A DNA stretch of 64,000 bases. It comes from Polyangiaceae bacterium (GTDB taxonomy: Bacteria > Myxococcota_A > Polyangia > Polyangiales > Polyangiaceae). The stretch lies in contig JANRKO010000028.1 of assembly GCA_033763455.1 (NCBI GenBank), positions 32,001 through 96,000 on the forward strand, given 5' to 3'. The position numbers and the translations under genes were made by a program. Under the pieces are notes generated by a model. That model ran no database searches and had not been told where the DNA came from. It worked only from the letters and a program-made list of their open reading frames with translations. Shown one piece after another: positions 3,104 through 61,355 of this stretch (the stretch's first letter is position 1; the number at the start of each line of letters is the position of its first letter).

Positions 3104-3976
3104 GTGTCTGGCCACCCAGGAACCCCTCACACTGACGTCGCATCGCAAGCGTCACGCCCCTTTGTCGATGAGCGCCTGGTGGCACCCGAAAGTCGCTATG
3201 AGGCCCACGAGGGAAGGCTCGTCTACATGTCTCCTTCCGATGAACCGCACGCCACACGGCACTCCAAGGTAACCGCGCTCCTCGAAGCTTGTGTATCTGC
3301 CGACTATGATGTGGCGTGCGACATGTTGACTCGCACTTCCGAGACTGACGACATAGCGCCGGACGCGAGCATCTTTCCTGTGGCGCGTGATCCTGAAACG
3401 GGGGGGCGATTGCTCGAGGAGCTTGCGTTTGAGGTCCTTAATACCGAGCGTCTAAATCACGCGGGCATCAAGGCTCAAAAGCTCAAGGGACGCGGGGTGC
3501 GCCGAGTTTTCGCGATCGACGTGGAGCGGCGTCGAGCGTTTGAGTGGTCCTCTGAGCTCGGAACGTGGTCCCTTCTCTCCCCGGCAGCTGAGATTGAAGA
3601 CCGCACGCTTGCCATGCCGTTGCCGCTTCGGGCACTTGTGGAGGCTGCAAAAGCGGACGACACCATCGCCCAGGCTTTGCTCGTGAAAGGCAATCCCGTG
3701 CTTGTCGAGGCTCTCAGGCACCAACGGGTTGCTGGCAGAGCTGAAGGCAAAGCGGAGGGGAAGGCTGAAGGCAAGGCAGAGGGGAAGGCTGAAGGCAAGG
3801 CGGAGGGGAAGGCTGAAGGCAAAGCGGAGGCAATTCTATTTGTCCTTGAATCCCGCGGTTTTGTTCTATCACCGAGGGAGCGAGGGGTTATCGCCACCGA
3901 GCAGTCCGAACCAAAGCTCGACGCTTGGTTGAGCCGAGCTGCCGTCTGCCAGAGCGTGGCTGAGCTTTTAGAGTGA
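3104..3976 (+). CDS. Uma2/DUF820-family PD-(D/E)XK endonuclease with AEGK repeat tail
   Basis: RYEAHEGRLVYMSP, APDASI, LAFEV motifs; C-terminal (AEGK)7 then 'LDAWLSRAAVCQSVAELL'. GTG 3104 chosen because TACACT lies 6 nt upstream. Confidence 0.8.
   Translation: MSGHPGTPHTDVASQASRPFVDERLVAPESRYEAHEGRLVYMSPSDEPHATRHSKVTALLEACVSADYDVACDMLTRTSETDDIAPDASIFPVARDPETGGRLLEELAFEVLNTERLNHAGIKAQKLKGRGVRRVFAIDVERRRAFEWSSELGTWSLLSPAAEIEDRTLAMPLPLRALVEAAKADDTIAQALLVKGNPVLVEALRHQRVAGRAEGKAEGKAEGKAEGKAEGKAEGKAEGKAEAILFVLESRGFVLSPRERGVIATEQSEPKLDAWLSRAAVCQSVAELLE
3740..3829 (+). repeat. In-frame 12-nt tandem repeat encoding (AEGK)7, with a 24-nt higher-order period
   Basis: Alternating GCTGAAGGCAAR and GCRGAGGGGAAG units. 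Confidence 0.95.
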
Positions 3977-4018
3977 GTAGCTGCGCCCAGGGTTTTCGGG
4001 CGGCGTTTCCGTAGCGTT

Positions 4019-4834
4019 CTAGGGCCTCGGGGACGACTTTTTGGGCGGGCGTGTGCTCGCGGGGTCGAGGCTGTCTCTCGGTGGGCCTGGCAAATGAACG
4101 AACAGGCACACCCCCTCTTCGGGGCTGAGATGTGAGCGCCAAAGAGCACCAGAAACGAGGCGTGAACTCTCGTCGATCGGGGCGCTACACAGGCGGCCTC
4201 CCCAGCGCTCAAGGTGGAGCTCGGACACAAGGTCGCGCGGCAAACTGCGAGCGCGTGACCCCTGGAGCACACCTTCGCTGAATACGCACAAGGTGGTGTC
4301 TGCGGTCAAAGAGGTTAGCTTGTAGCTGTGGTGTTCGTCTGGAAGGAGGCCCACGGGGTTTGAAAGGGCGGGCTCCAGCGAGATTGCTCCCGTGTTATCG
4401 ACACAACCGATATGGGGCAACCCGGCGTTGAGAATTTCAAGCTTCTGCTCGCTCGGGTCGATGCGCAGGACCCCGAGTGCCAAGGGCCCGACTCCGCGCT
4501 GGAACAACACATCCTTGAGCTTGTTCACAACCTCGTGAAGTGGAGCGCATTGACCGAGTGCGCTTACAAGCACAGGCTCCGCCGCCGAAAGCAGTGGCTC
4601 CGGGTTGGCGCGGCCGAGGGCATCGACCATGATCACGGACCAACCGCCCTGGGCATCGGCGATAGCGTAGGTGCGCGCACTTCCAAGTGAAGGACCAACG
4701 GCGATGCTTTGGGCCCAGAGCCTCGGGGCCAGTACCGGAAACGGCCGAAGGGAAGTTGAGGCGGCAGTGCCACTACCCGAGCTGAGCGGCAGCGCGGGGG
4801 ATGGAGGGCGGAGCGGAACAAGGGGGTCTGACAC
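4019..4834 (-). CDS. Degenerate SpoIIE/PP2C-like phosphatase-domain protein
   Basis: LEILNAGLP and TLCVFSEGV resemble PP2C-SpoIIE motifs (NAGHP, TDG), but metal-binding Asp residues appear substituted. Confidence 0.6.
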   Translation of the reverse strand: MSDPLVPLRPPSPALPLSSGSGTAASTSLRPFPVLAPRLWAQSIAVGPSLGSARTYAIADAQGGWSVIMVDALGRANPEPLLSAAEPVLVSALGQCAPLHEVVNKLKDVLFQRGVGPLALGVLRIDPSEQKLEILNAGLPHIGCVDNTGAISLEPALSNPVGLLPDEHHSYKLTSLTADTTLCVFSEGVLQGSRARSLPRDLVSELHLERWGGRLCSAPIDESSRLVSGALWRSHLSPEEGVCLFVHLPGPPRDSLDPASTRPPKKSSPRP

Positions 4835-5010: not shown

Positions 5011-6453
5011 ATGAGCCCGAGCGACCCCACTCCCAGAAGCGAACCCAAAGGGTCGAAGCTGGTTTCCATAATTGACGACGATCCCACGGTTCGGCGATTG
5101 ATGCGTTTCTGGTTAGAGAAGGATGGCTACCAAATCATCGAACACGCCTCTGGAACGAGCGCGTTGAATTACGCGGGAGATATGCCCGCGGCAGTCTGCA
5201 TCGATCTCGGGCTCGACGATGTTCCTGGTCTGGAGGTCTTGCGCCACCTAAAAGCTCGGGATCCTGAGATTTCACTCATCGTAGTCACCGCTCAGCGTGA
5301 CATCGACACCGCCGTCGAGGCGATGCGTGCCGGGGCGTACGACTATGTGACCAAGCCCTTGGAACGCGAGAGGCTCCTTTTGGCCGTTGGACGCGGTATC
5401 GAACGCCGCGACCTCGTGAGCAACGTGCGTCGCCTGAAAAATGCTCTTTCTGAGCATAAATCTGAGCATTCTATCATCGGGCGCAGTGCTCCCATGATGG
5501 AGCTGGATCGGCAGATAAGCCACGTGTTGGAGAGCGACGTGGCGGTATGCGTATTTGGGGAAAGCGGCACGGGCAAGGAACTAGTTGCACGCGCGATTCA
5601 TCAAGGCGGGCCACGCAAAGCGGGACCTTTTGTAGCGATCAACTGCGCGGCCATTCCTCATTCGCTGTTGGAATCTGAACTATTCGGTCACGAGCGCGGC
5701 GCGTTCACAGGTGCCACTCACACGCGGCGCGGGCGCTTTGAAGAGGCGGATCGCGGAACTTTGTTCCTTGATGAGCTCGGGGAAATGAGCTCAGGAACCC
5801 AGGCGAGCCTGTTAAGAACATTGCAAGAAAAGAAGATCCGCCGCGTGGGCGGTTCCCAAGAAATCCCCACCGATGCGCGGATCGTTTGCGCCACGCATCG
5901 AGATTTACGTGCCGAGGTGGAGGCGGGCCGTTTTCGTGAGGATCTATATTTTCGCTTGGTTGTTTACCCAATCATCGTGCCCCCGCTTCGCAATCGGGTT
6001 GAAGATATTCCCCTCCTAGTGGGGCACTTTTTACAGTCTTTGCGTGCCGATGTCGGCCGAGAGGTTCAGCGCATTAGCCCTGAGGCTTTGGAAGCTCTTA
6101 CCCGCTACCGTTGGCCAGGCAACGTGCGCGAACTGCAGAACGTAGTGCATCGCTGCATGTTGGCCTCGCGTGGCCACGAGATCACGCTGGCTGATCTGCC
6201 GCAAGATGTTCGAGCGCATGCCGCGCCGCCAATCCCGCATCATCACACGGGGAACGGCTCCATTTCACCGATATCGATTGCCCCCACGGCGACCGACATT
6301 GTGCCCCTTCAGGAGTTGGAGCGGCGTGCTATTGAGCGCGCGCTCCGTGCAACCGGTGGTAGCGTTGGCAAGGCGGCCAAGTTGCTTGGTATCGGTCGCG
6401 CTACGCTGTACAGGAGGATCCAGAGCATGTCGTTGTCGCGCGAGGTTGCGTGA
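5011..6453 (+). CDS. NtrC-family sigma54-dependent response regulator (REC-AAA+-HTH)
   Basis: IIDDD receiver start, GESGTGKE Walker A, GAFTGA, WPGNVREL, C-terminal LGIGRATLYRR. Confidence 0.97.
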   Translation: MSPSDPTPRSEPKGSKLVSIIDDDPTVRRLMRFWLEKDGYQIIEHASGTSALNYAGDMPAAVCIDLGLDDVPGLEVLRHLKARDPEISLIVVTAQRDIDTAVEAMRAGAYDYVTKPLERERLLLAVGRGIERRDLVSNVRRLKNALSEHKSEHSIIGRSAPMMELDRQISHVLESDVAVCVFGESGTGKELVARAIHQGGPRKAGPFVAINCAAIPHSLLESELFGHERGAFTGATHTRRGRFEEADRGTLFLDELGEMSSGTQASLLRTLQEKKIRRVGGSQEIPTDARIVCATHRDLRAEVEAGRFREDLYFRLVVYPIIVPPLRNRVEDIPLLVGHFLQSLRADVGREVQRISPEALEALTRYRWPGNVRELQNVVHRCMLASRGHEITLADLPQDVRAHAAPPIPHHHTGNGSISPISIAPTATDIVPLQELERRAIERALRATGGSVGKAAKLLGIGRATLYRRIQSMSLSREVA

Positions 6454-8360
6454 CAACGGGGGAGAGGGGGCCGGGGTTAGCGCAAATTCTTCGTGATCGG
6501 CTGCGCGAGGGTGGCATCGACCCAGAGTCTACCCCGGATGCAGCAGGCTTTAAGCGTGCGCTCTTGGTGATGGAAGCCTTGTTGCATGAACGAAGCCTTG
6601 TTGGCCCAAACTCGGACGAAGCCGAACGGTTAAGAATTGGCGGGCCACGCACAGCGCGGCCGAATCCATTTGCCGAGCTTCCGACCTTGTTTTCCACGCT
6701 GAGCCACGAGCTCAGAACGCCCATGACGGTGGTCATGGGGGCGCTGGAGCTGCTCGGCGAGCGGCGGCTTGGTAGCGACGATCAAACGATCGTTCAGAAC
6801 GCTCACGCTGCCGGTAAACAACTTGTCCACGTTGTGGACAATATCTTGCAGTTCGCCACGCTGCAGTACGGCGCCCTGGAGCTTCAGCCTGAACAGTTTG
6901 ATCTTGCGGCAGCTATCGAGAAGATCGCTGCCGGTTACCGTGCCCAGGCGAAAGCTCGAAAACTGGATTTTTCGCTGGATTTGGATCCTGAGCTTCCGGC
7001 CGCAGTGTTCGCCGATTCGGGACGGGTAGAACAGGTTCTCCGTGAACTCGTAGACAACGCGTTCAAGTTTACTTTCGATGGCGGGATCCGTGTTTCGGTG
7101 CGGGCACCCGTGACGAACGGCTCTGCGCGCCTGGAATTTACGGTGGAAGATGATGGAGTTGGCATTGGCGAGGGTGCCAAAGCGCGCATGTTTCGCCCGT
7201 TTTCTCAGGGCGATCCGTCGTCGACGCGCCGTTTCGGCGGAACCGGGCTCGGGCTCGTCGTGGCACAGCGCTTGACCGAAATGATGGGTGGCGAGATGGG
7301 TTTTTCCTCGGAGCTCGGTCAGGGGAGTCGATTTTGGTTCTGGATCCCACTGGTGGGGCTCGGAGCATCGCTCACTGCCCCGCGCACCGTGACGCAAGTC
7401 AGCCCCAGTTCAATTGGACTCAGGCTCGAAGGCGACCGCAGTTCGCGCAAGATCTTGGTAGCTGACGACAACCCCTTCAATCGAGAGCTCGTGCTGCGAG
7501 CGCTTCAAGGTTATTCCGACGTGGTTGTGGTGGGCACGGGTAAGGACGCCGTGGATGCGGTCATGCACGGTAGATTCGGGTTGGTTCTCATGGATTGCCA
7601 GATGCCAGACATGGACGGGCTTGAGGCAACCCGTCACATTCGTGCCGCGCTTCTGGATGACTACGTGCCGATCGTGGCCCTTACGGCGAACGCGATGCCC
7701 GGAGATCGCCAGCGGTGTGTAGCGGCTGGTATGGACGATTACCTGGCCAAGCCGTTTGATTTAGAGACATTGCGCGCCGTTGTGAGTCGCTATGTGGGCC
7801 CCTCTCACGTCACTCAATCCGCTGAAACGCTTCCGCCGCTTGGCGAGCGCAGACCCGTGCCGACTGCGGCGAAACTCGTTCTGGCCAGGCAGCTCCAAGT
7901 TCACTCGGCCCCAAAAATTACCGATACCCCCGCGGATTCGAAGGCCCCGGCTCAGACGGGCGTGATCCCTGTCGATCTCAGTCGCTTGCAACAACTGAGT
8001 GAAGAAGCGGGCTCGCAAGATCTGGTGGTGGAGCTTTCAGAGATCTTTGTAAGTGACACCGAGCAGCGCCTGGCACTGATTACCGATGCGCTCAGTCGAG
8101 AAGACTTTCAGGCAGTCGCCCGAAGTGCCCACACGGTGAAAGGTGCGGCTGGTAGCTTCGGTGCACCTGAGGTAGCGGAGCTTGCGACGAGCTTAGAAGC
8201 CTTTGCGAAAAACTACGATGAGTTGCAGGTGGCGCGGACGCTCGCCGAGCTGAAGCAGGAGTTTGCGAGGGTGGCGCACTACCTGGCTACAGTGGTGCTA
8301 CCTGGGCCAAGTGATACCATGCCGTCGCCCAAGGTACCGAGCATGCGAAGCCGCGGCTGA
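6450..8360 (+). CDS. Hybrid histidine kinase (HisKA-HATPase-REC-Hpt), no obvious sensor or TM domain
   Basis: SHELRTP, DNAFKFT, GGTGLGL, LMDCQMPDMDG, Hpt AHTVKGAAG; GTGA overlap with the regulator stop. Confidence 0.95.
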   Translation: MTTGERGPGLAQILRDRLREGGIDPESTPDAAGFKRALLVMEALLHERSLVGPNSDEAERLRIGGPRTARPNPFAELPTLFSTLSHELRTPMTVVMGALELLGERRLGSDDQTIVQNAHAAGKQLVHVVDNILQFATLQYGALELQPEQFDLAAAIEKIAAGYRAQAKARKLDFSLDLDPELPAAVFADSGRVEQVLRELVDNAFKFTFDGGIRVSVRAPVTNGSARLEFTVEDDGVGIGEGAKARMFRPFSQGDPSSTRRFGGTGLGLVVAQRLTEMMGGEMGFSSELGQGSRFWFWIPLVGLGASLTAPRTVTQVSPSSIGLRLEGDRSSRKILVADDNPFNRELVLRALQGYSDVVVVGTGKDAVDAVMHGRFGLVLMDCQMPDMDGLEATRHIRAALLDDYVPIVALTANAMPGDRQRCVAAGMDDYLAKPFDLETLRAVVSRYVGPSHVTQSAETLPPLGERRPVPTAAKLVLARQLQVHSAPKITDTPADSKAPAQTGVIPVDLSRLQQLSEEAGSQDLVVELSEIFVSDTEQRLALITDALSREDFQAVARSAHTVKGAAGSFGAPEVAELATSLEAFAKNYDELQVARTLAELKQEFARVAHYLATVVLPGPSDTMPSPKVPSMRSRG

Positions 8361-8406
8361 ACACACACACGGTGACGCTCCACTTTTTCTCGGGGCGCCA
8401 ACGTGT

Positions 8407-11400
8407 TCACGCATCGTTGAGCCATTGGCTCGGGGGCGCCGAACGTGGGCCGGCCAAAGCCGCAAGCGAGTTCATCACGTATTCCGAGCGACGCATGCCA
8501 ACGAGCACCGAACACACGCCCGGCTGGCTCAGGAGTGTGGCTATGGCGAGCTGGCCCAGGTCGAGTGATTGAGCCATGCTGCCAAAACGCGGCTCCAGCT
8601 TTTTACGAATGTCTGCTGTGATTTCGTTACTGCGAGCATTGCAAAGCTGTTCCAATGCGCCCAGCGCCTGGCCCAAGCGCGCTCGGTAGCGGGGGAACCA
8701 TACCGCGAAGCGCTGGTGCGCCTCACCTTGTAGCACTTTGGTGAGGGAGAGCTTTAGCTGCCCGACATGCGGCTCAATGACCGTACGACGAAGGTCGAGA
8801 AACTGGTGCCGTGTGGCGAGACGCCCATGGGCCTCTTTCAGCCCAACTGCCCAGTTGAAGAGATGTTTGGGCATCTTGCCGTCTGGATTGGTAAGCCCTG
8901 GGGCAATGCGGTCGGTGAATTCGAGCTCAAGTGCGCGTAGCTGCTCCAAGGCTTCGGTGAAGCTTGGCGAGCCCTCGGGGGCGCGTGGGATGTCCGCAAT
9001 GCGAAGCAGGCCGAATTCTGTAATGGCGTTGAGAGGGCGGTTGGTGAGTACGGCGAGCCCGAGTTGCCGTGCTTTATCGATTACGCTTGACCCGTTGTGA
9101 ACATCTCGAGTGGCTGCCTCGTGTTCCACAACGTTAAACGGGAACTCCATGACTCGAAAATGGTGGCTCGCTCCTCCCGCCGCAACGGCTGCCTTGTAGA
9201 ATTTCTCGACATCTGTGGCTTCTGCGTCGGTGCGTGGGCGCGCTACTGTATTGCTTGAAACGCCATAAAAACGCAGCCTTCCCCGCGAAACCTCTCGCTC
9301 CAGCTGGGCGAAAGCCGCCTCTATGCGGCGATAGAATTCGCTCTGCGCCGAGAGCAGCGCGAGCCCAGAGCGCTTCGCTTGGGAGAGATAATATTCCGGA
9401 TTGTGGAGGAGATACCCATCGAGTGTGGATAGACCTAAACGCGTGAGAGAGGCGGTGAGTTGCTCCTCAATCCACGTCGGATGAATTGAATGCCAGAGGT
9501 CATCCGCATGTTCGACCATTTCGGGAAAACTCGCCCCCGCTTGCCGGCGCGCTTTGACGATCTCCAGGGCTTCGCCCTGGGCGTACCCAACTTTGGACAC
9601 TACGATGATCTCTTCGCGTTTGAGCTCGTGGGTATCCACCAATTGATGCAGCACATCGCCTACCAGGCGTTCGCTCGAGCCCTCGGTGTAAGTAGATGAT
9701 GTGTCGATCAAATTCACCCCACTTTTAAGCGCAAGCGTGAGCGCTTCTCGCTCGGATTCGTCGCTGTGGCGTACTCGGTAGCCCCCAAAGCCGAGACGGC
9801 AAGCGCTGAGCCCGGCAAGCTGCTCGTAGGCACCGGGGCCGAAAGAAGCAGTGAAGAGCTCCGCGTAGATTCTGGTTTGCTCCGGTGTTGCGAAGCCTTG
9901 AAGAGGCACGCGTAGGGGCTTTTCGCGGGTGGGTGCTCCAACTCCGCGCGAAAGTGCGGCAGCCACCTCTTTTGGATTCACAAGCGGGGATTGGCAGGTG
10001 AAATTTTGGCAGACATAGAGCGCCGGCTGTTCGGCACGTGCGCCCTTGGGCTCAGGGCCAGCAACCGGCTTCTTGCCGCGGAGAAGCGGCGTAGTGAGCG
10101 AACTTCCCTGAAGCTGCCAGCCGATCACACGGTTTGGTAAGTAGAGCTTGGCGAGTTCGCGTAGGAAGGGCTCAGCAGAAGTGCGATCTTCGGCGGCTAA
10201 CACTAGCTGTGCGCTTGGCGTAAAGTGGCGTTCGAGCGCAGAGAGGGACGAGGCAAATGCGCGAGGAGAACGCTCGATGCTTTGCCCATACGCTAGGAGT
10301 GCCTGTTTTGCCGCCTCCGAAAAATCTTCTCGATCGAGGTGTTCCCCCAGCCGGCCGAGAGCCAAGGCTGCTGTGGCATTGGCATTGGGTAGCGCAGAAT
10401 CATGCCCTTCGCGCAATCGCACCACGAGCGGAACTTCGCCGTGTGCTGTGTGAAAAAATGCCCCTCCGGTATCATCTCCAAAATCACTGACCAGGCGATC
10501 CAAGAGCGCTGTTGCCCAACGCAAGTGCTCTTCGTTTCCGGACGCCTCGTATAAAGTGATCAACGCATCCCCGAGGAAGGCGTAATCTTCCAAGTAGGCG
10601 TGGAGGTGCGCGCGCCCCAACCGGTACGTGCGAAAAAGGCCGCCGTCGGGGCGACGCAGACTCTTGAACAAGAAGCTTTGAGCTCGCTCCGCTGAGTCCA
10701 AATAACGTGCGTCCCCTAGAACGCGATAACCCTCTGCCATGGCGCTTATCATGAGCGCATTCCACGAAACGAGGATCTTGTCGTCGAGAAGCGGCGGTAT
10801 TCGTTGTTGCCGCGCGGCATACACGCGCTCTCGTGCGGTTTTCAGTAGTTGACTAAATTCGCTATCTTCAAGGCCCAAGGCTTCTGCCACCGCGGCCCGC
10901 GGGCGGGGTGTGTGAAGGATGTTTTTCCCCTCCCAGTTCCCTTCTGGCCTCACCGCATAATATTCACAGAAAACTCGCGCTTCCTCAGTAGTGAGCAGGG
11001 CCTTGAGCTCAGCCTCGGCCCATACGAAGTACTTTCCCTCTTCGCCTTCACTGTCAGCATCGGTTGCCGAAAAATAACCCCCTTCAGCGCCTTGCATTTC
11101 GGCAAGCACATAATCCAGCGTCTCCTGGGCAATTCGCGCAAATTCGGGATTCTGAGTTGCCTGAAAGGCTTCAAGATACACGCGCGCAAGGAGCGCGTTG
11201 TCGTACAGCATCTTTTCGAAGTGGGGTAAAAACCAGCGTTCGTCCGTGGAGTAACGTGCAAAACCACCCGCCAGGTGGTCATACATGCCGCCACGGCTCA
11301 TGGCTTCGAGGGTGGCTTCCACCATATGGAGAGCCTTTGGATTCTGCGTGCGGTAGTGTTCCTGCAGCAGGAACGAAAGCAAAGAAGAAGGAGGAAATTT

Positions 11401-53585: not shown

Positions 53586-53843
53586 CAATCGAACGCGCGC
53601 ATCCGCACGCTGCCTCGCTTCTACACCACCGATGTGACGTTTCTCAGCTGACCGCCGCGCCGATCCAGCACACGCCACGTATTCCGATTTTTCGGATTTG
53701 GTGGCGCATCAAATGCGCGAGACGTGAACCCGTCGCGCAAGTCGTTCGTGCCGAGCGGCGACAGGTTGGCGGCGAGATCTGCAGAAACCGTTTTTCGAAT
53801 AGCCGCTTGCCTCGCCGGGCAGAGCGCTGCTAAGCGTCTTCCT

Positions 53844-54296
53844 ATGAAGTCGATAACCCAAACGACGCGACGCGCCTTGGCGGTGTTGCTACTGTTGCCA
53901 CTAAGCGGCTGCTATAGGGCGACGTTTTTCGAGAACCCTACTGCTGTTCGCGGCAATGAACACGAGCGCTGGACAGATTTCTTTATCTTCGGTTTGGTTG
54001 GCACCCAAGATTTCTCCATCAAGGAGTTTTGCCCGAGCGGCGAGGTGGCGCAGGTTCGCACCGGGGCGAACTTTGGAACTGGCATCGTTGGGTTTTTGAC
54101 GATTGGGATCTACACGCCACGAAAACTCTATGTAACGTGTGCCGCAACGGGCAAGGCGGCGCGGCGTGAACTGGAGATTGACGCTACTTCCTCAGGTGAG
54201 CCTGTAGCGGCAAAGATTCGCACTGGGAATTTAGCCGTACCGGTTAACATTCAACGGGTCAAGTCGGCTACGTGGCGACTTCAGGAGCGGAGCTGA
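53844..54296 (+). CDS. Bor/Iss-family lipoprotein
   Basis: LSGCY lipobox, FFIFGLV, CPSG, LTIGIYTPR...TC. Confidence 0.8.
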   Translation: MKSITQTTRRALAVLLLLPLSGCYRATFFENPTAVRGNEHERWTDFFIFGLVGTQDFSIKEFCPSGEVAQVRTGANFGTGIVGFLTIGIYTPRKLYVTCAATGKAARRELEIDATSSGEPVAAKIRTGNLAVPVNIQRVKSATWRLQERS

Positions 54297-54299
54297 GCC

Positions 54300-54734
54300 A
54301 TGTACAAGAATCGCAACTCCCGAACGCTGCTTGGCCTGTTTCTCACGTGCCTCCCCCTCTGCCTAAGTGGGTGTTACACGACCACCATTCACTCTGGGAA
54401 ACCTGCCGCGGCGCCGAGCCTCGAATACGATCAGAAGTGGCATCACGGCCTGGTGTGGGGGATCGCCGAACTCAGCGGCCCTTACGATCTGTCAAAAATC
54501 TGTCCACTCGGGTGGGCGAAAATTAAGACCGAAACCTCATTTCTGAATGGTTTCGTCGAGGCTGTGACCAGTGGTGTCTATGCGCCCCAGACGATCACCG
54601 TCATGTGCAACGCCTCTGAGGGTCCCGCCGCGCCATCCACTTCTGCTAAGCCCGCTGCGCCTCCCACCGATACGCCTGTTCCCCCTTCAACGGAGCCCGC
54701 TGCCCCGGTCGAGCCAAGCGCTAGCCCCGAGTGA
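54300..54734 (+). CDS. Bor/Iss-family lipoprotein with Pro/Ala-rich tail
   Basis: LSGCY, LVWGI, ICPLG, ETSFLNG, GVYAPQTITVMC. Confidence 0.8.
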   Translation: MYKNRNSRTLLGLFLTCLPLCLSGCYTTTIHSGKPAAAPSLEYDQKWHHGLVWGIAELSGPYDLSKICPLGWAKIKTETSFLNGFVEAVTSGVYAPQTITVMCNASEGPAAPSTSAKPAAPPTDTPVPPSTEPAAPVEPSASPE

Positions 54735-54867
54735 AGATCCTGGATTTATGATCGTATTCCTAGCGAGCGCGATCCTGATGCGGAGCCGGCGACCTGATCG
54801 GTTTGCCAGGTGCAGTTGCCGTTGAGCCTAAGCCAGTATCCCAGACTTGCGTGCAACCGGTTTCGGT

Positions 54868-54948
54868 TCGGCGTTTGCAGGGAAACGCCACCAGGTCCGC
54901 GTGGTCGCAGGAACGGCAGGTAAGCTGCAAATATCCATGCTCCGGGAT
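54868..54948 (-). mobile_element. IS91/ISCR-family transposase zinc-binding-domain remnant
   Basis: IPEHGYLQLTCRSCDHADLVAFPCKRR resembles the IS91 motif HGF.R..C..C....LVAFSCK.R; the CPSC that should follow is lost. Confidence 0.65.
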
Positions 54949-55172
54949 AGCGCTAATCATGCCCCGCCCGGCCGCTTGAAGCGGGGGCGATTTAAGGAAA
55001 GTCACCAACCTGTCGCAAAGCTCATGGCTAGCGAGGCGCTTCGCATGCCAAGTACCGCCCGGATGGTCGAAACCCCCTTGGATGGTGCGGGATTTTGTGG
55101 TTATGCTGCGCCGCTCCCTATGGGAGTAGCTCATTGACTGCAAGCGGACGTTCGGAGAACGAAGGAGAGATC

Positions 55173-56087
55173 ATGGCAAACTTTGGAACTCTGATTAAGA
55201 CAACGCGCGGGCGCCGCGTGGCTGCTGGCATTGCGGGCGCCGCAACACTTGCGAGCGCGGGTGCCTACGCCGCGGTTAGCCTCAACGCGAGCAGCGGTGA
55301 GATCCAAGGCTGCTACGACCGACAGGGCCGGCTGCGCGTACTCACGGGCCCGAACGATGCCTGTGAACGCAATGAGCAAGCTATCAGCTGGAACAAGCAA
55401 GGCCCCGAGGGAGCCCAGGGCCTTCCTGGGATACAGGGGCCCGCAGGTCCGGTGGGACCGGCGGGAGCGGATGGAGCACCTGGTCGGGATGGACGCGATG
55501 GCCTTCAGGGCGCCATCGGCCCAATGGGGGCAATCGGGCCTGTTGGTCCTCAGGGGCCTGCAGGGCCTCCGGGTTCAAGTGGTGGAGGAGGCGGTCAGCC
55601 AGCCCCGGCGGCCCACGAGGCCGATGTGTTCTTGAAGATCGGTGACATTAAGGGCGAATCGACGGACACCAAGCACAAGGACGAAATCGAGATCGAAAGC
55701 TTCAGCTGGGGCCTTAACAACGCGGGTTCGTTAAGCTCCGGCGGGGGAGCGGGCTCTGGCAAAGTGAGCTTTAATGATATCCAGCTTACCAAGCGCGTCG
55801 ATCTCTCAAGTGCCGCTTTGGCTCTCAACGGCGCGACAGGCAAGCATCTGCCTGAGGCCACCATCACGATCCTAAGGCCTAGCCAGAAGACGGGCGAAAA
55901 GGTCGAATATCTGAAGATCAAGCTGACGGACGTCTTGGTGACTTCCGTGAGTCAGGCGATCGATACGAGCGCCACCGCCGCCGAGAGCATCTCGCTCAAT
56001 TTCTCCAAGATCGACTTCCAATACACGTCGGAAGTAGCACCGCCCAATGGGTTCGGGTGGGACATCAAACAGAACACGAAGCTTTGA
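55173..56087 (+). CDS. hcp: Signal peptide - two-Cys cap - collagen repeat - Hcp (T6SS tube) fusion protein
   Basis: AAGGAG RBS; signal peptide ending AGAYA; Gly-X-Y x19-20; [63 protein letters not shown]. Confidence 0.92.
55401..55580 (+). repeat. Collagen-like Gly-X-Y repeat (19-20 uninterrupted triplets)
   Basis: [60 protein letters not shown]. Confidence 0.95.
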
Positions 56088-57658
56088 GCCAGAGTGGGGC
56101 TGATTTCAAGGCGGCATTGACCGCCTACGATCAAGTTGCCTACCCAGGCCACGCCTACCCACAGACGCACCCCACACGCCTGGGCGCGATGGCTCAGCTA
56201 CTCGGGTTAACGCCAGCGCCCGTTGAGCGTTGCCGAGTTTTGGAGCTCGCCTGTGGGGACGGCGCCAATCTTATCCCCATGGCCGTGGCGCTGCCGGGCG
56301 CTACCTTCGTCGGCGTGGACGTCGCAGCGCGTGCGATCGCCGCGGGGCAAGAGATTGTGGCCGAGCTCGGCCTCCGGAACATCGAGCTTCGCGCGGGCGA
56401 CGCTTCCGCCCTGGGGCGCGATTTAGGGGAGTTCGACTATGTGATCGCCCACGGGGTCTATTCGTGGGTGCCAGAAGCCGTGCGCGACGGGCTGCTCGCA
56501 ACGATCAAGGCACACCTGGCGCCGGGTGGGATCGGTTATGTGAGCTTCTCCGCGTATCCTGGCGCCTATTTTCGCGAACTCGTGCGCGAGCTCATGCTCT
56601 TTCACACGGGCGAGGGCGCGCCACCCACCGAGCGCCTTCAGCACGGAATCGATTTCTTGCGCTTTGTTCGCGAAGTGCACGGTCCCGGAACGGCTTACGC
56701 GGCCGCCCTGGATCAAGAGCTTGTGCGCGTTTCCAAAGCGGACCCAGGCTACGTCTTTCACGATGATTTCTCTGAAACGAATGCCCCGATCTATTTTTCG
56801 GCTTTTGCTGAACACTTGGCCACACACGATCTTGCCTACCTGTGTGACGCGACCTTCGATTACTTCTTCGACCCACGCCTTTCGTCGGCTGTACGCGAGC
56901 AGATCAGCAGCTACGCCGGGGGAAACATCATTGCCGAACAGCAGTACCTCGACTTCATCCAGGGCACACCCTTCCGCCAAACGCTGGCGTGCCACGCGAG
57001 CGCACCGATTGATAGAAAGTTCGACGCGACGCGATTGTTCCCGCTCTTGGCTTCGGCTTGGCTTGCTCCTACACAGCCGGACCCCGACATCCTGGGCCCA
57101 ACCCGTGTTTGCTTTCGCAGCCAAGATCTTCGAGAAATCGAAACGGAGGAGCCGCTCGCCAAAGCTTTGCTCTTGGAGCTATCCCAAGCTTGGCCTGAAG
57201 CGCGTAGCGTTCAGTGCATTTTTGACAGCGCCCTCAGGCGCATCGGGGCGCCTCCACCCGATCCATCGGGGGCGCCTGGGTACGCTCCGCACGCGCTCCG
57301 GGTTCTGGAGCGCACCGTTCTTATGGGCGCCGCTACCCGCTTGATCTCTGTGTGGCACGGCAGCTTTGTGGGTATCGGAGTACCCGGCGATCGCCCGCTC
57401 GCAAGTCCGCTCGCTCGCCTTCAAGCGAGTCGTGGAGAACTAGTAACGAGCCTTCGCCACACGACAGTACGCCTTCAAGATGCCCCTGCACGTGGCCTGC
57501 TTGAGCTGATGGATGGCACCCGCACCCGCCAGGACTTGTTGGTAGCGCTCCGCGACCGATTGGCCGAGTCCGACCCAACCTCTGCCCATGACCTAAACCT
57601 GGAAGCGCTCAACCGCGTGCTCAACGGGTTGGCGGAGCGTGGTTTCGTTTTGGGTTAG
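56084..57658 (+). CDS. Class I SAM methyltransferase with MethyTransf_Reg-like and C-terminal winged-helix domains (PKMT-like)
   Basis: YD..AYP...[48 protein letters not shown]....FRQTL, LMDGTRT; TTG 56084 overlaps the hcp TGA. Confidence 0.88.
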
Positions 57659-57709: not shown

Positions 57710-58546
57710 TCAAAGTGGCGCGGCCGTATAGCCTTGCACCACCTTTAGGTTGTCGAAGCGAATGGCAGATGGCGTCTGCGGTTCCCACGTGAGGTTCGGA
57801 AAAATGGCGGGTAAATACTGCGATGCACAAAGATCGTCGAACAACCCCTGGGTCAGCCCTGGGTACGCTGGCAGTGCACCTTGACACGTCGTCCGCTTCA
57901 CTTCGTTGCCACCGTAGAAGGTGCTGAAAAATAGGCTGTTGACCCATGCATCTTGGCTGTCCGGAACAATCACCGGGCACGGGCCGCTGCACTCGTCGCG
58001 CAACACCACGTTGTGAGAAACCAACAGTCGTTTGGCAGAGCCGTCGGCGGCTTGCACCGCCAAACTTACTTCACCATTGCCCGAGATGGGCACCGGGGCG
58101 CCGATACCATCCAGAACCAGCTTGCCGTCCGCATCTTTCTTGTAAACGACACTGTCATTGTCGTTTACCTGAACCGAGATTCGTAGCGTGTACCATTTGC
58201 CTGTTTGGAAACGAAATTTGTCGTCGGCAGGGATCTTGCCCGGCTCTTCGTAGGGCGCGTCTCCGTCGGTGGCATCCATCATCTGCATCACGCCGCAGCC
58301 CCCCGAAGGACGCGTTTGATCGTAGGAATACAGTTGTAAGCGGCCATTGTTGCGCCACATCACGCGCACACTCCAGTTCTTCACATTGCGCTTCTTGTTT
58401 CCATCGTCCGTGCACCCACTGTCGAAAGCCTTGGCCGCCAAACCCGGTAATTTCCCACCCTTGGCGAAATCGAAACCGGGCTCGAAATACAAATCGTAGG
58501 TCAACGTGTACGCCTTCGCAGCGATAGGGGCGTTAGAGGCAGCCAC
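57710..58546 (-). pseudogene. Polysaccharide lyase family 14-like gene, apparently 5'-truncated
   Basis: YDLYFEPGFDFAKGGKLPGL, WSVRVMWR, FSTFYGG; no signal peptide; in-frame TAG at 58610-58612 upstream. Confidence 0.65.
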
Positions 58547-59570: not shown

Positions 59571-60716
59571 GTGCTCCGCTCACTCGAACTCAGCAACTTT
59601 CGAGCCTTCCAGAGTTTCTCTCTTGAAGGCCTTGGACAAATAAATTTGTGCGTCGGCACTAATAACTGCGGCAAGACCTCGATCCTCGAAGCCGTAAGCA
59701 TCTTGGCGTCGCGCGGTCGTCCGGAATCGCTTTGGTCCGCGCTTGCCCGTCGCGGTGAGCAGTGGTTCGAAGATGATACTAGGGGTCCGGGCCGCCTAGA
59801 AGTCGATATTTGCCATCTGTTCTATGGTCATGAGCTTTTACCAAATGCGCAGTTCTCAATTACAGGAGTAAACGACACGAGGACGCAGAAAATCACCGCC
59901 ACGGCCGTTGAGCGCGACCCCGCTCAGGAGAACACTGAAGGCCCTGATCGCATATCAGCTCGTCAGGGTACCCTGTTTGATCCAGGCGACACTGAAAATT
60001 CGCTCGGGGGGAGGATGTCGTTGGAGCTACGATGGGAGGGTTTCAACAGCGAGGTAACTCAGCAGTTTCTCGTATCGCGACGCGGAGGCCTGGTTAGCGA
60101 CGTTCTCGAACGATCGACCAGAAAGCGCGACGACGACGCCACTCCGGTTAGATCGATTACGACCGAAGCACTGACACGCGACGAAGTCGTCGCCATGTTC
60201 GAAGCCATTGTGCTAACCCCGGAGGAACAAGTCGTCATTGATGCGCTCAAGACGATCGAACCTGCTATCGAACGCATTGCTCCGATTGGCTCTTCGCGAC
60301 GCCGATATTTCCCCGTTGATCGGGGTGGAATTGTCGTAAAGTTAGCGAACAGCAACCAGCGCATCCCCATAGGCAGCATGGGAGACGGGATCTGGCGGAT
60401 GCTTGGAATCGCTTTGTCGCTAGCGCGAGCCAGGGGCGGGATCCTCCTCGTCGACGAGATTGACACGGGATTTCACCACTCGGTCATGGCCTCCATGTGG
60501 CGGATGGTTCTTGAAACCGCCTTAAGGCTCGACGTCCAGGTATTTGCGACCACCCACAGCCGCGACTGCTACGAAAGCCTTGCTTCCATTTCACGCGCGG
60601 ATGCATCGGAGAGTCGTGTGTCTATCCAGCGGATCGAGCGCGGAAACCCCAAGGCCGTAGCCTTCTCCGAAAGTCAGATAGTCATCGCTGCAGAACGCGC
60701 CATTGAGGTGAGATAA
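59571..60716 (+). CDS. ABC-type ATPase (AAA_15/AAA_21)
   Basis: NFRAF, GTNNCGKTSILEA, SMGDG signature, LLVDEIDTGFH, QVFATTHS. Confidence 0.92.
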   Translation: MLRSLELSNFRAFQSFSLEGLGQINLCVGTNNCGKTSILEAVSILASRGRPESLWSALARRGEQWFEDDTRGPGRLEVDICHLFYGHELLPNAQFSITGVNDTRTQKITATAVERDPAQENTEGPDRISARQGTLFDPGDTENSLGGRMSLELRWEGFNSEVTQQFLVSRRGGLVSDVLERSTRKRDDDATPVRSITTEALTRDEVVAMFEAIVLTPEEQVVIDALKTIEPAIERIAPIGSSRRRYFPVDRGGIVVKLANSNQRIPIGSMGDGIWRMLGIALSLARARGGILLVDEIDTGFHHSVMASMWRMVLETALRLDVQVFATTHSRDCYESLASISRADASESRVSIQRIERGNPKAVAFSESQIVIAAERAIEVR

Positions 60717-60719
60717 CCT

Positions 60720-61355
60720 ATGCGCGTCATGTTGGTTGAGGGATCAGATGACCTGCGTGCAATCCCCCACCTCTTGGAGACAGCCGGCGTGGCGTGGGGC
60801 CGAAAAGATAAGCCAATTGTCAAAATTATCCAATGCGAAGGGGTGGCAACAATGTTGGCACCTGACTTCATCACGACACATCTAAAGGCATCAGGTCTGG
60901 TGGCCCTGGGGGTTATCGTGGATGCGGACAATAGCGCGCAAGACCGTTGGAGAACGATCCGCGAACGAGTGCTCGACCTCTACTCCGATGCTCCATCTGA
61001 CATGCCCGCCACGGGAGTAATTCTGCGCGCGACGGGCAAACCCACGTTTGGCGCATGGATAATGCCAGACAATGTGAACCGCGGGATGCTTGAGACGTTC
61101 CTGCTTTTTCTCAGGCCCAAGGACAATCCGTCGCTGCTTGCGTACGCACAGGAGGTTATCCAAGAGGCCAAGAACCGGGGCGCACCGTTCCTGGAACAGC
61201 ACCAGGACAAGGCCGAGATTCACTCTTGGCTGGCTTGGCAGGATCCCCCTGGGAGGCAGTTGCACAACGCCATCATGGAGAGAATGTTGGGGAACAAACA
61301 CGAGTGTATTGAATCATTTGTTGCATGGTTTCAGGCGCTTTACTCCCAAAAATAG
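60720..61355 (+). CDS. DUF3226-like TOPRIM-fold protein
   Basis: MLVEGSDD, GVIVDAD, WIMPDN..GMLETFL, DKAEIHSWLAWQDPPG. Confidence 0.82.
   Translation: MRVMLVEGSDDLRAIPHLLETAGVAWGRKDKPIVKIIQCEGVATMLAPDFITTHLKASGLVALGVIVDADNSAQDRWRTIRERVLDLYSDAPSDMPATGVILRATGKPTFGAWIMPDNVNRGMLETFLLFLRPKDNPSLLAYAQEVIQEAKNRGAPFLEQHQDKAEIHSWLAWQDPPGRQLHNAIMERMLGNKHECIESFVAWFQALYSQK

Follow-up and report, generated by a model that had tools for sequence, protein, structure and literature searches.

A PKMT-family methyltransferase gene paired with the gene of a collagen-stalked Hcp protein in a Polyangiaceae bacterium

Introduction

In a 64,000-nucleotide (nt) stretch of DNA from a Polyangiaceae bacterium (GenBank assembly GCA_033763455.1, contig JANRKO010000028.1, positions 32,001 to 96,000 of the forward strand; hereafter, the window), two genes lie head to tail on the + strand between positions 55173 and 57658. 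The first encodes a protein in which a collagen-like stretch precedes a domain of the Hcp family of type VI secretion tube proteins, and the second a methyltransferase dependent on S-adenosylmethionine (SAM). Why should a protein methyltransferase be encoded against an hcp gene, and is the Hcp protein what it methylates? An initial annotation, made from the letters of the window, had answered with a dedicated module in which a structural subunit is methylated before its export. Here this proposal is examined through domain and structure comparisons, the junction between the two genes, and a survey of related enzyme loci.

Enzymes of the PKMT family are known to act on surface proteins. PKMT1 and PKMT2 of Rickettsia methylate many lysines of the outer membrane protein OmpB (PMC8232902). 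A second substrate case after OmpB is described for Acinetobacter sp. Tol 5, where KmtA methylates more than 130 lysines on the trimeric autotransporter adhesin AtaA and where loss of KmtA changes the surface display of AtaA and adhesion; the family is there portrayed as widespread and falling into two clusters, A (KmtA) and R (Rickettsia) (PMC11784438). The main text of that paper contains no occurrence of the words 'Hcp', 'type VI', 'neighbor' or 'adjacent'. A literature search, outside which most subscription journals lay, found no description linking Hcp to a PKMT-type or any other lysine methyltransferase, in agreement with the initial annotation, which knew of no account of such a system; within the same limits, no description of collagen-stalked or signal-bearing Hcp proteins was found. 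Neither the enzyme family nor methylation of a structural protein destined for export is new in itself; what appear to be new are Hcp as the partner, the way in which that partner is built and how widely the pairing occurs.

The Methyltransferase

The second gene (56084 to 57658, + strand, stop codon included) encodes 524 residues, and Pfam architecture, sequence and predicted fold all place its product in the Rickettsia PKMT1/PKMT2 family. It comprises a class I SAM-binding domain (residues 52–149, positions 56237 to 56530; Methyltransf_25, E 5.3e-16), a MethyTransf_Reg middle domain (residues 221–304, 56744 to 56995; PF10119, E 2.1e-20, 73.7 bits against a cut-off of 25.5, with the whole profile covered) and the PKMT C-terminal winged-helix domain (residues 436–500, 57389 to 57583; PF21782, PKMT_2nd, E 7.1e-15, 55.6 bits against a cut-off of 27.8). 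NCBIfam has no specific model for the enzyme and gives only generic methyltransferase matches below cut-off, and source names for its relatives are 'class I SAM-dependent methyltransferase' or similar. The best match among all PDB sequences is R. typhi PKMT2 (5doo; E 1.8e-59, residues 9–492 of 524), followed by R. prowazekii PKMT1 (5dnk; E 2e-56). The structure model, built from 20 sequences, has a mean predicted local distance difference test score (pLDDT) of 86.9 and a predicted template-modelling score of 0.86. Its top eight Foldseek matches are all PKMT1 or PKMT2 chains (E 8.5e-37 to 1.5e-33, template-modelling (TM) scores 0.69–0.76), and the next is the Mycobacterium tuberculosis protein-lysine methyltransferase Rv2067c. 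The initial annotation had placed the enzyme in the MethyTransf_Reg family, and likened its architecture to that of the Rickettsia enzymes, on the strength of the motifs QTHP, HGVYSWV, YVFHDD and EQQYLDF..FRQTL; all of these are present in the translation, and both assignments are borne out by the profile and structure matches.

The window enzyme thus shares domain architecture, full-length sequence similarity and fold with Rickettsia PKMT1/2, and in both cases an enzyme without a leader is associated with a substrate, or here a candidate substrate, bearing an export signal, putative in the window protein. Identity in the structural alignment is, however, about 26%, the candidate substrate is an Hcp-domain protein rather than an autotransporter, and in the window the enzyme gene lies head to tail with the gene of its candidate substrate.

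The Collagen-Hcp Protein

The first gene (55173 to 56087, + strand, stop codon included; ATG at 55173, TGA at 56085 to 56087) encodes 304 residues. The first 35 of these (55173 to 55277) consist of a basic KTTRGRR sequence and about 20 Ala/Gly-rich hydrophobic residues, a pattern that recurs in aligned relatives, and are read on inspection as a putative export signal or membrane anchor; the pLDDT of this leader is below 50. Residues 41–75 (55293 to 55397) form a small β module with two cysteines and the consensus GCYD..G.LRV...C...E..I.WN, which is kept in the aligned relatives. Three strands are predicted in it, with mean pLDDT values of 85, 87 and 93 for successive 10-residue blocks across residues 41–70, and the Pfam scan found no family for it. 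There follows a collagen-like stretch at approximately residues 76–140 (55398 to 55592), in which a script counted 22 consecutive GXY triplets without interruption; the Pfam Collagen profile covers residues 77–135 and barely passes (E 2.4e-6, 27.7 bits against a cut-off of 27.2). The remainder, residues 153–304 (55629 to 56084), is the Hcp domain. Here the Pfam profile T6SS_HCP (PF05638) matches over its full length (residues 153–284, E 1.6e-37), and the NCBIfam model TIGR03344 (TssD) scores 66.2 bits against a cut-off of 58.9. In an AlphaFold model built from 33 sequences, block pLDDT values in the Hcp domain are mostly above 90, and leader and stalk are unmodelled, as expected for a monomer. 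The top Foldseek match is Pseudomonas aeruginosa Hcp1 (1y12; E 3.4e-17, TM 0.86 by target, 39% identity). Neither an LPXTG motif nor any other C-terminal anchor was seen on inspection of the translation.

Fold and family (1y12, PF05638, TIGR03344) are those of canonical Hcp, or TssD, as in P. aeruginosa Hcp1. Canonical Hcp, however, is leaderless, approximately 160–170 residues long and exported by the type VI machine, whereas the window protein carries a 152-residue N-terminal extension made up of putative leader, Cys module and collagen, and no type VI core gene is among the 40 scanned reading frames of the window. Known 'evolved' Hcps bear C-terminal toxin domains, not N-terminal stalks. 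In the placement of a GXY stalk between a putative export signal and a globular head, the window protein resembles Scl1/Scl2, Lcl and BclA; it differs from them in having an Hcp domain as its head, and the likeness is confined to low-complexity repeats, the weak NCBIfam matches to Lcl, SclB and SclA falling in the GXY region only and far under their cut-offs.

A Pfam scan of 40 open reading frames (ORFs) of the window, 30 large ones and 10 around the pair, found no type VI secretion family. This result, the leader and collagen stalk, and the occurrence of relatives in Actinomycetota and source-named archaea make a subunit of a type VI tube an improbable role for the protein, and the initial annotation needs correcting on this point; to our knowledge, type VI secretion is not known in archaea, nor do we know of it in Actinomycetota. 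The sequence has the appearance of a surface protein, exported by a Sec-type route and headed by an Hcp domain.

An Atlas search of predicted structures returned N-termini of other collagen-repeat proteins, mostly from Actinomycetota and with different heads (Ig-like, LTD, trypsin), as resembling the leader and Cys module at TM scores of 0.41–0.47, values that serve as leads only; leader and Cys module may form a reusable stalk cassette. An origin from a prophage or tail fibre was considered and rejected: three fragmentary phage records match in the Hcp domain only, and PHROG tail-fibre matches cover only the GXY repeats.

Conservation of the Pairing

Related loci were collected by a genome scan with an alignment of the enzyme and 19 relatives as query. 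The scan matched 512 stretches, of which 407 were confirmed; the best 80 of these, at 33–73% identity and from at least ten phyla, were kept, and the DNA screened around them totals 1,093,820 nt. All linkage counts are thus enzyme-centred, the loci having been chosen by the methyltransferase and not by Hcp. Hcp counts rest on stop-to-stop ORFs with hidden Markov model envelopes and Pfam, because a crude gene caller ran enzyme ORFs over hcp, hiding several pairs, and missed the enzyme in 10 loci. Upstream DNA is shorter than 700 nt in four loci (L022, L025, L050, L072), so that a neighbor could have been missed in L022, L050 and L072.

Of the 80 loci, 29 contain Hcp ORFs according to a profile of our own, which also included the collagen part; these ORFs number 31, and all of them pass PF05638 with 56–146 bits (cut-off 23.5 bits). 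Hcp is the immediate neighbor of the enzyme in 27 loci. In 19 of these hcp is the upstream gene of a same-strand pair, its end reaching the enzyme start or lying no more than about 110 nt from it (L001, L002, L003, L008, L017, L019, L020, L023, L024, L029, L031, L035, L036, L055, L056, L059, L065, L068, L077); in the other eight it lies immediately upstream on the opposite strand (L010, L016, L018, L027, L037, L042, L054, L073). Two Solibacter loci (L062, L079) have the enzyme 2.4–5.8 kb from one or three hcp genes within a genuine type VI cluster, and two more (L009, L025) have it in a type VI cluster with no hcp in the available DNA; these clusters include TssA, ImpE, TssB, TssC, TssK, DotU and IcmF. 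Hcp or type VI core genes therefore accompany the enzyme in 31 of 80 loci, from Myxococcota, Actinomycetota, Pseudomonadota, Methylomirabilota and Acidobacteriota, and no Hcp ORF was found in the screened DNA beyond the immediate-neighbor and type VI cluster contexts.

When ORFs within 2.5 kb of the enzyme genes were clustered, Hcp formed the largest neighbor family (27 loci). The second cluster (12 loci, 0.04–2 kb away) has two members that overlap histidine kinases and is read as two-component-type proteins, and the third (10 loci) consists of antisense shadows of hcp. The next specific families, a NUDIX-metallo-β-lactamase fusion (8 loci) and pirin (6 loci), are both limited to one clade of nearly identical Acidobacteriota enzymes. 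The genes that flank the pair vary. In L003 they encode phosphoenolpyruvate carboxylase and alanyl-tRNA synthetase; L020 and L055 have genes for glutamine synthetase III and for an ammonium transporter; and in L024/L036 the folate genes folP and folB precede the pair and folK follows it. These differing flanks indicate that the conserved unit is the pair alone. Actinomycetota pairs reside on contigs of up to 3.65 Mb (L036, L031, L020) and are therefore not binning debris. In separate protein searches, six enzyme clusters and six collagen-Hcp clusters had identical longest contigs (46298, 16274, 36273, 5067, 4282 and 2957 nt). Non-conserved adjacency had been named by the initial annotation as grounds for refuting its proposal, and the survey gave the contrary result. 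Judged from these sequences, the Hcp-enzyme pair is a real, mobile two-gene module, and the two genes very probably form a functional pair.

The linkage persists over three arrangements and four Hcp architectures. The initial annotation had described a collagen-Hcp module; the pairing stands, but its limitation to collagen-Hcp does not, as plain, signal-peptide and type VI cluster Hcps share the same partner. The order of leader, Cys module, collagen and Hcp seen in the window occurs in four Myxococcota and five Solirubrobacterales loci. A plain Hcp of about 160 residues without a leader is encoded in eight Actinomycetota loci and one Methylomirabilota locus, and a classical signal peptide followed by a two-Cys Hcp domain in eight Beta-/Gammaproteobacteria loci, all of them divergent; to this kind L019 adds a PEP-CTERM-like tail. 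The fourth kind of partner is the ordinary Hcp of type VI clusters.

These architectures bear on the idea that the methyltransferase is itself an Hcp-dependent secreted effector, taken out of the cell by Hcp to methylate target-cell proteins. The gene of a cargo effector typically comes directly after hcp, and four relatives do lie within true type VI clusters, although in the Acidobacteriota clusters the enzyme gene stands among core genes and not beside VgrG or PAAR. At 524 residues the enzyme is far above the cargo known to fit the Hcp lumen. Rv2067c, its structural neighbor outside the PKMT chains, is described as a secreted methyltransferase acting on a host histone (PMC10739865). Against such a role, many partner Hcps have Sec-type leaders of their own, Actinomycetota carry pairs on contigs of megabase size (L020, L031, L036), type VI genes are absent from the scanned window ORFs, and no conserved immunity-like gene follows the enzyme. 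An effector role is accordingly judged quite improbable.

Gene Trees

The enzyme tree (84 rows, quick search) scatters the Hcp-linked enzymes over several parts. The window belongs to a Myxococcota clade of five with a support of 99; a group of 22 unites eight proteobacterial and 13 actinomycetotal Hcp-linked rows with L078, which has no Hcp; and further Hcp- or type VI-linked places are taken by L017 and L019, by the Solibacter type VI clade and by L009. The co-directional label requires at least three changes on this tree, compared with a mean of 9.9 when labels are shuffled, and none of 500 shuffles was as low. Shallow clades of the Hcp-domain tree (32 rows) match those of the enzyme tree, namely the window with L003, L001 with L002, the eight proteobacterial rows, and L031 with L024 and L036. 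Seven plain actinomycetotal rows likewise form a common clade with the same inner order in both trees. The recurrence of the same shallow clades in both gene trees indicates that the two genes have been inherited together.

The Junction and the Enzyme Start

As the initial annotation had stated, the hcp stop codon in the window overlaps a TTG in the frame of the approximately 524-residue methyltransferase (TTGA, 56084 to 56087, + strand). This is a candidate site of stop/start coupling, and the TTG at 56084 is a candidate enzyme start: the gene-caller N-terminus of an 86%-identical relative, P0122, aligns exactly with it. Alternative in-frame starts are a GTG at 56057 and a TTG at 56117, the latter three codons ahead of the conserved YD motif.

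The window enzyme is read in the -1 register relative to hcp. Counting the window with the 19 loci, there are 20 co-directional pairs, and 16 of them share this register, with a codon over the hcp stop. The overlap reads CTGA in 12 pairs; the window and L065 have TTGA, L029 has GTAG and L031 has CTAA, so that a YTGA junction in the -1 register is present in 14 of 20. In thirteen loci (12 from Actinomycetota, and L008) the 240 nt ahead of the YD.V.YPG motif contain no ATG, GTG or TTG in the enzyme frame; the motif itself starts there 11–32 nt (about 3–10 codons) past the hcp stop. The sole near-cognate candidate in 10 of the 13 (L020, L023, L024, L035, L036, L055, L056, L059, L068, L077) is the CTG of CTGA, a junction that falls near position 8000 in most of these loci. 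The remaining three comprise L029 (GTAG) and L031 (CTAA), which have no NTG at the overlap and are left unexplained, and L008, in which the enzyme frame is in a different register.

The enzymes have no leader, and in ATG-initiated relatives 2–7 residues precede the YD motif; a start at the overlapping CTG or TTG would match this length. From the start-less frames with a CTGA overlap, together with these short N-termini, the overlap is read as a site of termination and re-initiation at a weak start codon, which would yield little enzyme per Hcp chain. The start-less frames of the 13 loci point to non-canonical re-initiation or to some form of recoding. Programmed frameshifting into the enzyme frame was considered and rejected: the window junction, CTT TGA G, resembles the +1 site of release factor 2, but the enzyme frame is -1, and no X XXY YYZ heptamer is present in the last 9 nt of hcp, the only stretch inspected.

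Proposed Function of the Pair

The interpretation offered by the initial annotation is supported in part, for the enzyme family and for the conserved pairing; methylation of Hcp, its timing and its purpose belong to the model set out here. From the function of the family and the linkage of the genes, we lean slightly towards Hcp being the methylated substrate of the enzyme. The first gene would encode an exported surface protein, composed of a leader or anchor, a disulfide-type β module, a collagen-like stalk and a globular Hcp head, and the second a cytoplasmic SAM-dependent protein-lysine methyltransferase. Translation of the enzyme would be coupled to that of the first gene through the stop/start overlap, and with a start codon as weak as TTG, replaced by CTG in many relatives, there would be little enzyme beside an abundant partner. 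As the enzyme is leaderless and SAM is cytoplasmic, the simplest model is methylation before export. Several lysines of the Hcp domain would be modified while the collagen-Hcp protein is still in the cytoplasm, a timing also assumed for the known family substrates OmpB and AtaA, which likewise have export signals. The modified protein would then be exported, its stalk presenting the Hcp head at the surface, where methylation might tune traits such as charge, protease resistance or adhesion. We infer the export route, the coupling mechanism, Hcp as the substrate, lysine as the target and the physiological effect.

Known systems offer partial parallels. Salmonella FliB methylates lysines of flagellin, an exported and polymerising structural protein, in the cytoplasm and is encoded beside the flagellin gene, an analogy already drawn by the initial annotation. 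It is not known to be related to the PKMT family, however, and flagellin leaves through the flagellar export apparatus. The host of KmtA and AtaA is non-pathogenic and, like that of the window, environmental, and AtaA is a trimeric surface fibre, as a collagen-stalked Hcp would also be trimer-based. The host of the window is an environmental Polyangiaceae-like bacterium and not an intracellular pathogen, so that shielding from host ubiquitin cannot be the purpose of methylation here.

A number of points weigh against methylation of an exported Hcp. Neither Hcp nor type VI genes are present in the available DNA of 49 of the 80 loci, and the enzyme family is not restricted to Hcp. The leader of the collagen-Hcp protein has been judged by eye only. 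Deep branches are without resolution in both gene trees, so that one and several origins of the linkage are not separable. Only three Hcp clusters from the protein search were matched directly in the loci at 90% identity or above. A plasmid collection yielded 33 records matching the enzyme, one of which, a Methylococcus plasmid, covers at least 80% of it; this best plasmid relative has no Hcp among its nine annotated neighbors. No Hcp-methyltransferase fusion was found by PF10119 or PF21782 in 20 longer Hcp-domain proteins, a blank that is weak evidence. Nor does lysine content set the Hcp domain apart: the initial annotation had contrasted a Lys-rich Hcp domain with a Lys-free collagen stretch, and the counts agree (14 of 152 residues, or 9.2%, in the Hcp domain, two in the N-terminal 152 residues, and none in the GXY stretch), but the richness is not special, as methyltransferase-linked Hcp domains range from 5.0 to 10.6%. 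Finally, the first Gly of SAM motif I is replaced by Ala (ELACGDG) in the window enzyme and the six relatives closest to it.

Two other lines of evidence were set aside. Lysine enrichment was rejected as a sign of a substrate, being non-discriminating over the range found among linked Hcp domains, for which there was no unlinked control set. Modelling enzyme and Hcp domain as a complex gave a score of 0.00 and, run without controls, speaks neither for nor against binding.

The loci without a nearby Hcp would fit a partnership in which Hcp is not the substrate. The Hcp ring might instead act as an adaptor, chaperone or scaffold while the enzyme modifies another protein, for example one at the surface or a type VI component, or the enzyme might regulate Hcp assembly by binding and not by catalysis. 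Linkage shows partnership and not the direction of action, Hcp rings are known to serve as chaperones and carriers for other proteins, and the HemK/PrmA-like second methyltransferase beside the PKMT-like one in Acidobacteriota clusters hints at a wider modification task. Signal-peptide Hcps, however, once exported, would be apart from a leaderless cytoplasmic enzyme, and the stand-alone pairs have no other conserved nearby gene that could supply a substrate. Both characterised family members, moreover, are described as methylating the structural surface protein itself (PMC8232902, PMC11784438). This alternative is considered unlikely.

The altered motif I could also be taken as a sign that the adjacency in the window is functionless, with the pair surviving as a relic of horizontal transfer in a region that is decaying and marked by insertion sequences, and with one or both genes inactive. 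Degraded-looking flanks (a weak IS91-like fragment and a partial lyase gene, described below) and a weak TTG or uncertain start codon would fit such decay. Yet neither ORF is shortened and both can be aligned with their relatives over the whole length, every invariant column of the enzyme alignment is retained in the window sequence, and the pairing recurs in 27 of 80 relatives. At the first Gly of motif I, Ala occurs in seven of 20 aligned rows and Gly (ELGCG) in the other 13; the presence of the Ala variant down to 58% identity argues that it is maintained. Decay of the pair is thus very improbable.

If Hcp methylation is indeed what the pairing reflects, the model can be broadened. PKMT-type lysine methylation would then be an old and widespread modification of Hcp, spanning the type VI clusters of Acidobacteriota and machine-less Hcps in Myxococcota, Actinomycetota and possibly archaea; Hcps would also form Sec-exported surface structures, on collagen stalks or signal anchors, and the enzyme would be re-initiated sparingly at TTG or CTG over the hcp stop. 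The conjunction of these propositions is put forward tentatively and is, taken as a whole, rather doubtful. The conserved pairing would name a third class of substrate for the PKMT family. For the type VI field, no post-translational modification enzyme genetically tied to the tube protein was found described, and such an enzyme could bear on tube assembly, stability and recognition. In phyla in which type VI secretion is not known, collagen-stalked Hcps with export signals would, if true, represent a reuse of the Hcp ring as the head of a surface fibre.

Surroundings of the Pair in the Window

Just upstream of the pair lie two adjacent genes for Bor-like lipoproteins (53724 to 54296 and 54300 to 54734, + strand; Lambda_Bor, E 5e-14 and 5e-17; PHROG 260). 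They are followed by a short ORF of 127 residues on the - strand (54760 to 55143) with a weak IS91 zinc-finger-like stretch, for which Zn_Tnp_IS91 gives E 5.3e-4 and 20.4 bits, below the cut-off of 26.3. The 'IS91 sliver' seen here by the initial annotation is plausible on this match but weakly founded, and much the same applies to the 'convergent broken gene' that it placed downstream. The latter is a partial polysaccharide lyase family 14 ORF (57710 to 58546, - strand; PF21294, Polysacc_lyase_14, E 5.8e-25) that covers profile positions 40–155 of 215; no leader was found in any frame upstream, and the ORF is plausibly truncated.

Further downstream, an AAA_15/AAA_21 ATPase gene (59571 to 60716, + strand) is followed by a DUF3226 gene (60720 to 61355, + strand; E 1.8e-61). 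The two look like one of the two-gene systems used in defence and, along with the IS91-like fragment, suggest a variable region. The ORF content of the window, with DUF4215, Stig1-like repeats, Ser/Thr kinases and planctomycete-type PSD domains, fits nearest genomic relatives among Polyangiaceae metagenome-assembled genomes (MAGs).

Variant Loci and Other Hcp-Domain Proteins

Several of the surveyed loci depart from the simple pair. In L068, a collagen-stalked protein with two tandem Hcp domains (3397 to 4833, + strand) is encoded ahead of the methyltransferase. The hcp gene of L073 (7224 to 7994, - strand) is split across two frames compared with the near-identical relative L042, through either a frameshift or a sequencing error. 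Just past the divergent signal-peptide Hcp gene of L018 lies a gene for a Crp/FNR-type regulator (6226 to 6966, + strand), and the same position is occupied by one conserved ORF family in five further proteobacterial loci (L010, L037, L042, L054 and L073). In L024 (3170 to 10046) and L036 (2967 to 10020), both from Solirubrobacterales, an MMPL gene precedes the pair, and the three genes stand between folP (with folB in L024) and folK, which looks like an insertion into an operon.

The type VI clusters with a PKMT-like gene among their core genes are from Acidobacteriota (Solibacter, Pyrinomonadaceae; L009, L025, L062, L079). In L025, L062 and L079 a second, HemK/PrmA-like protein methyltransferase gene stands beside the PKMT-like gene (for example, L079, 6367 to 7956, - strand, and 7908 to 9467, + strand). 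In a Myxococcaceae MAG (L012) the enzyme adjoins a protein with a T4 gp19-like contractile-injection tube domain (9582 to 10700, - strand), and there is no Hcp. The enzyme of L069 adjoins a 305-residue collagen-repeat protein (8621 to 9535, - strand); this protein matched our own Hcp profile weakly, but Pfam finds no Hcp domain in it, and it was not counted. PKMT-like genes are duplicated in tandem, without Hcp nearby, in L034, L067 and L080, which are Chthoniobacterales, Chloracidobacterium and Pirellulales MAGs.

Other Hcp-domain proteins extend the range of architectures. Those designated P0241–P0251 and P0253 are 743–1515 residues long, with scores that imply several tandem Hcp domains; P0249 and P0253 are source-named Pirellulaceae/Pirellulales (Planctomycetota), and P0243 and P0248 carry PKD and Ig-like domains. 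At the short end, P0046, P0053, P0054, P0060 and P0095 are Hcp-domain proteins of about 205–212 residues with an N-terminal hydrophobic anchor. Three of these (P0046, P0054, P0095) are source-named Nitrososphaera (archaea), and P0079 is, by its source name, from a Pacearchaeota archaeon.

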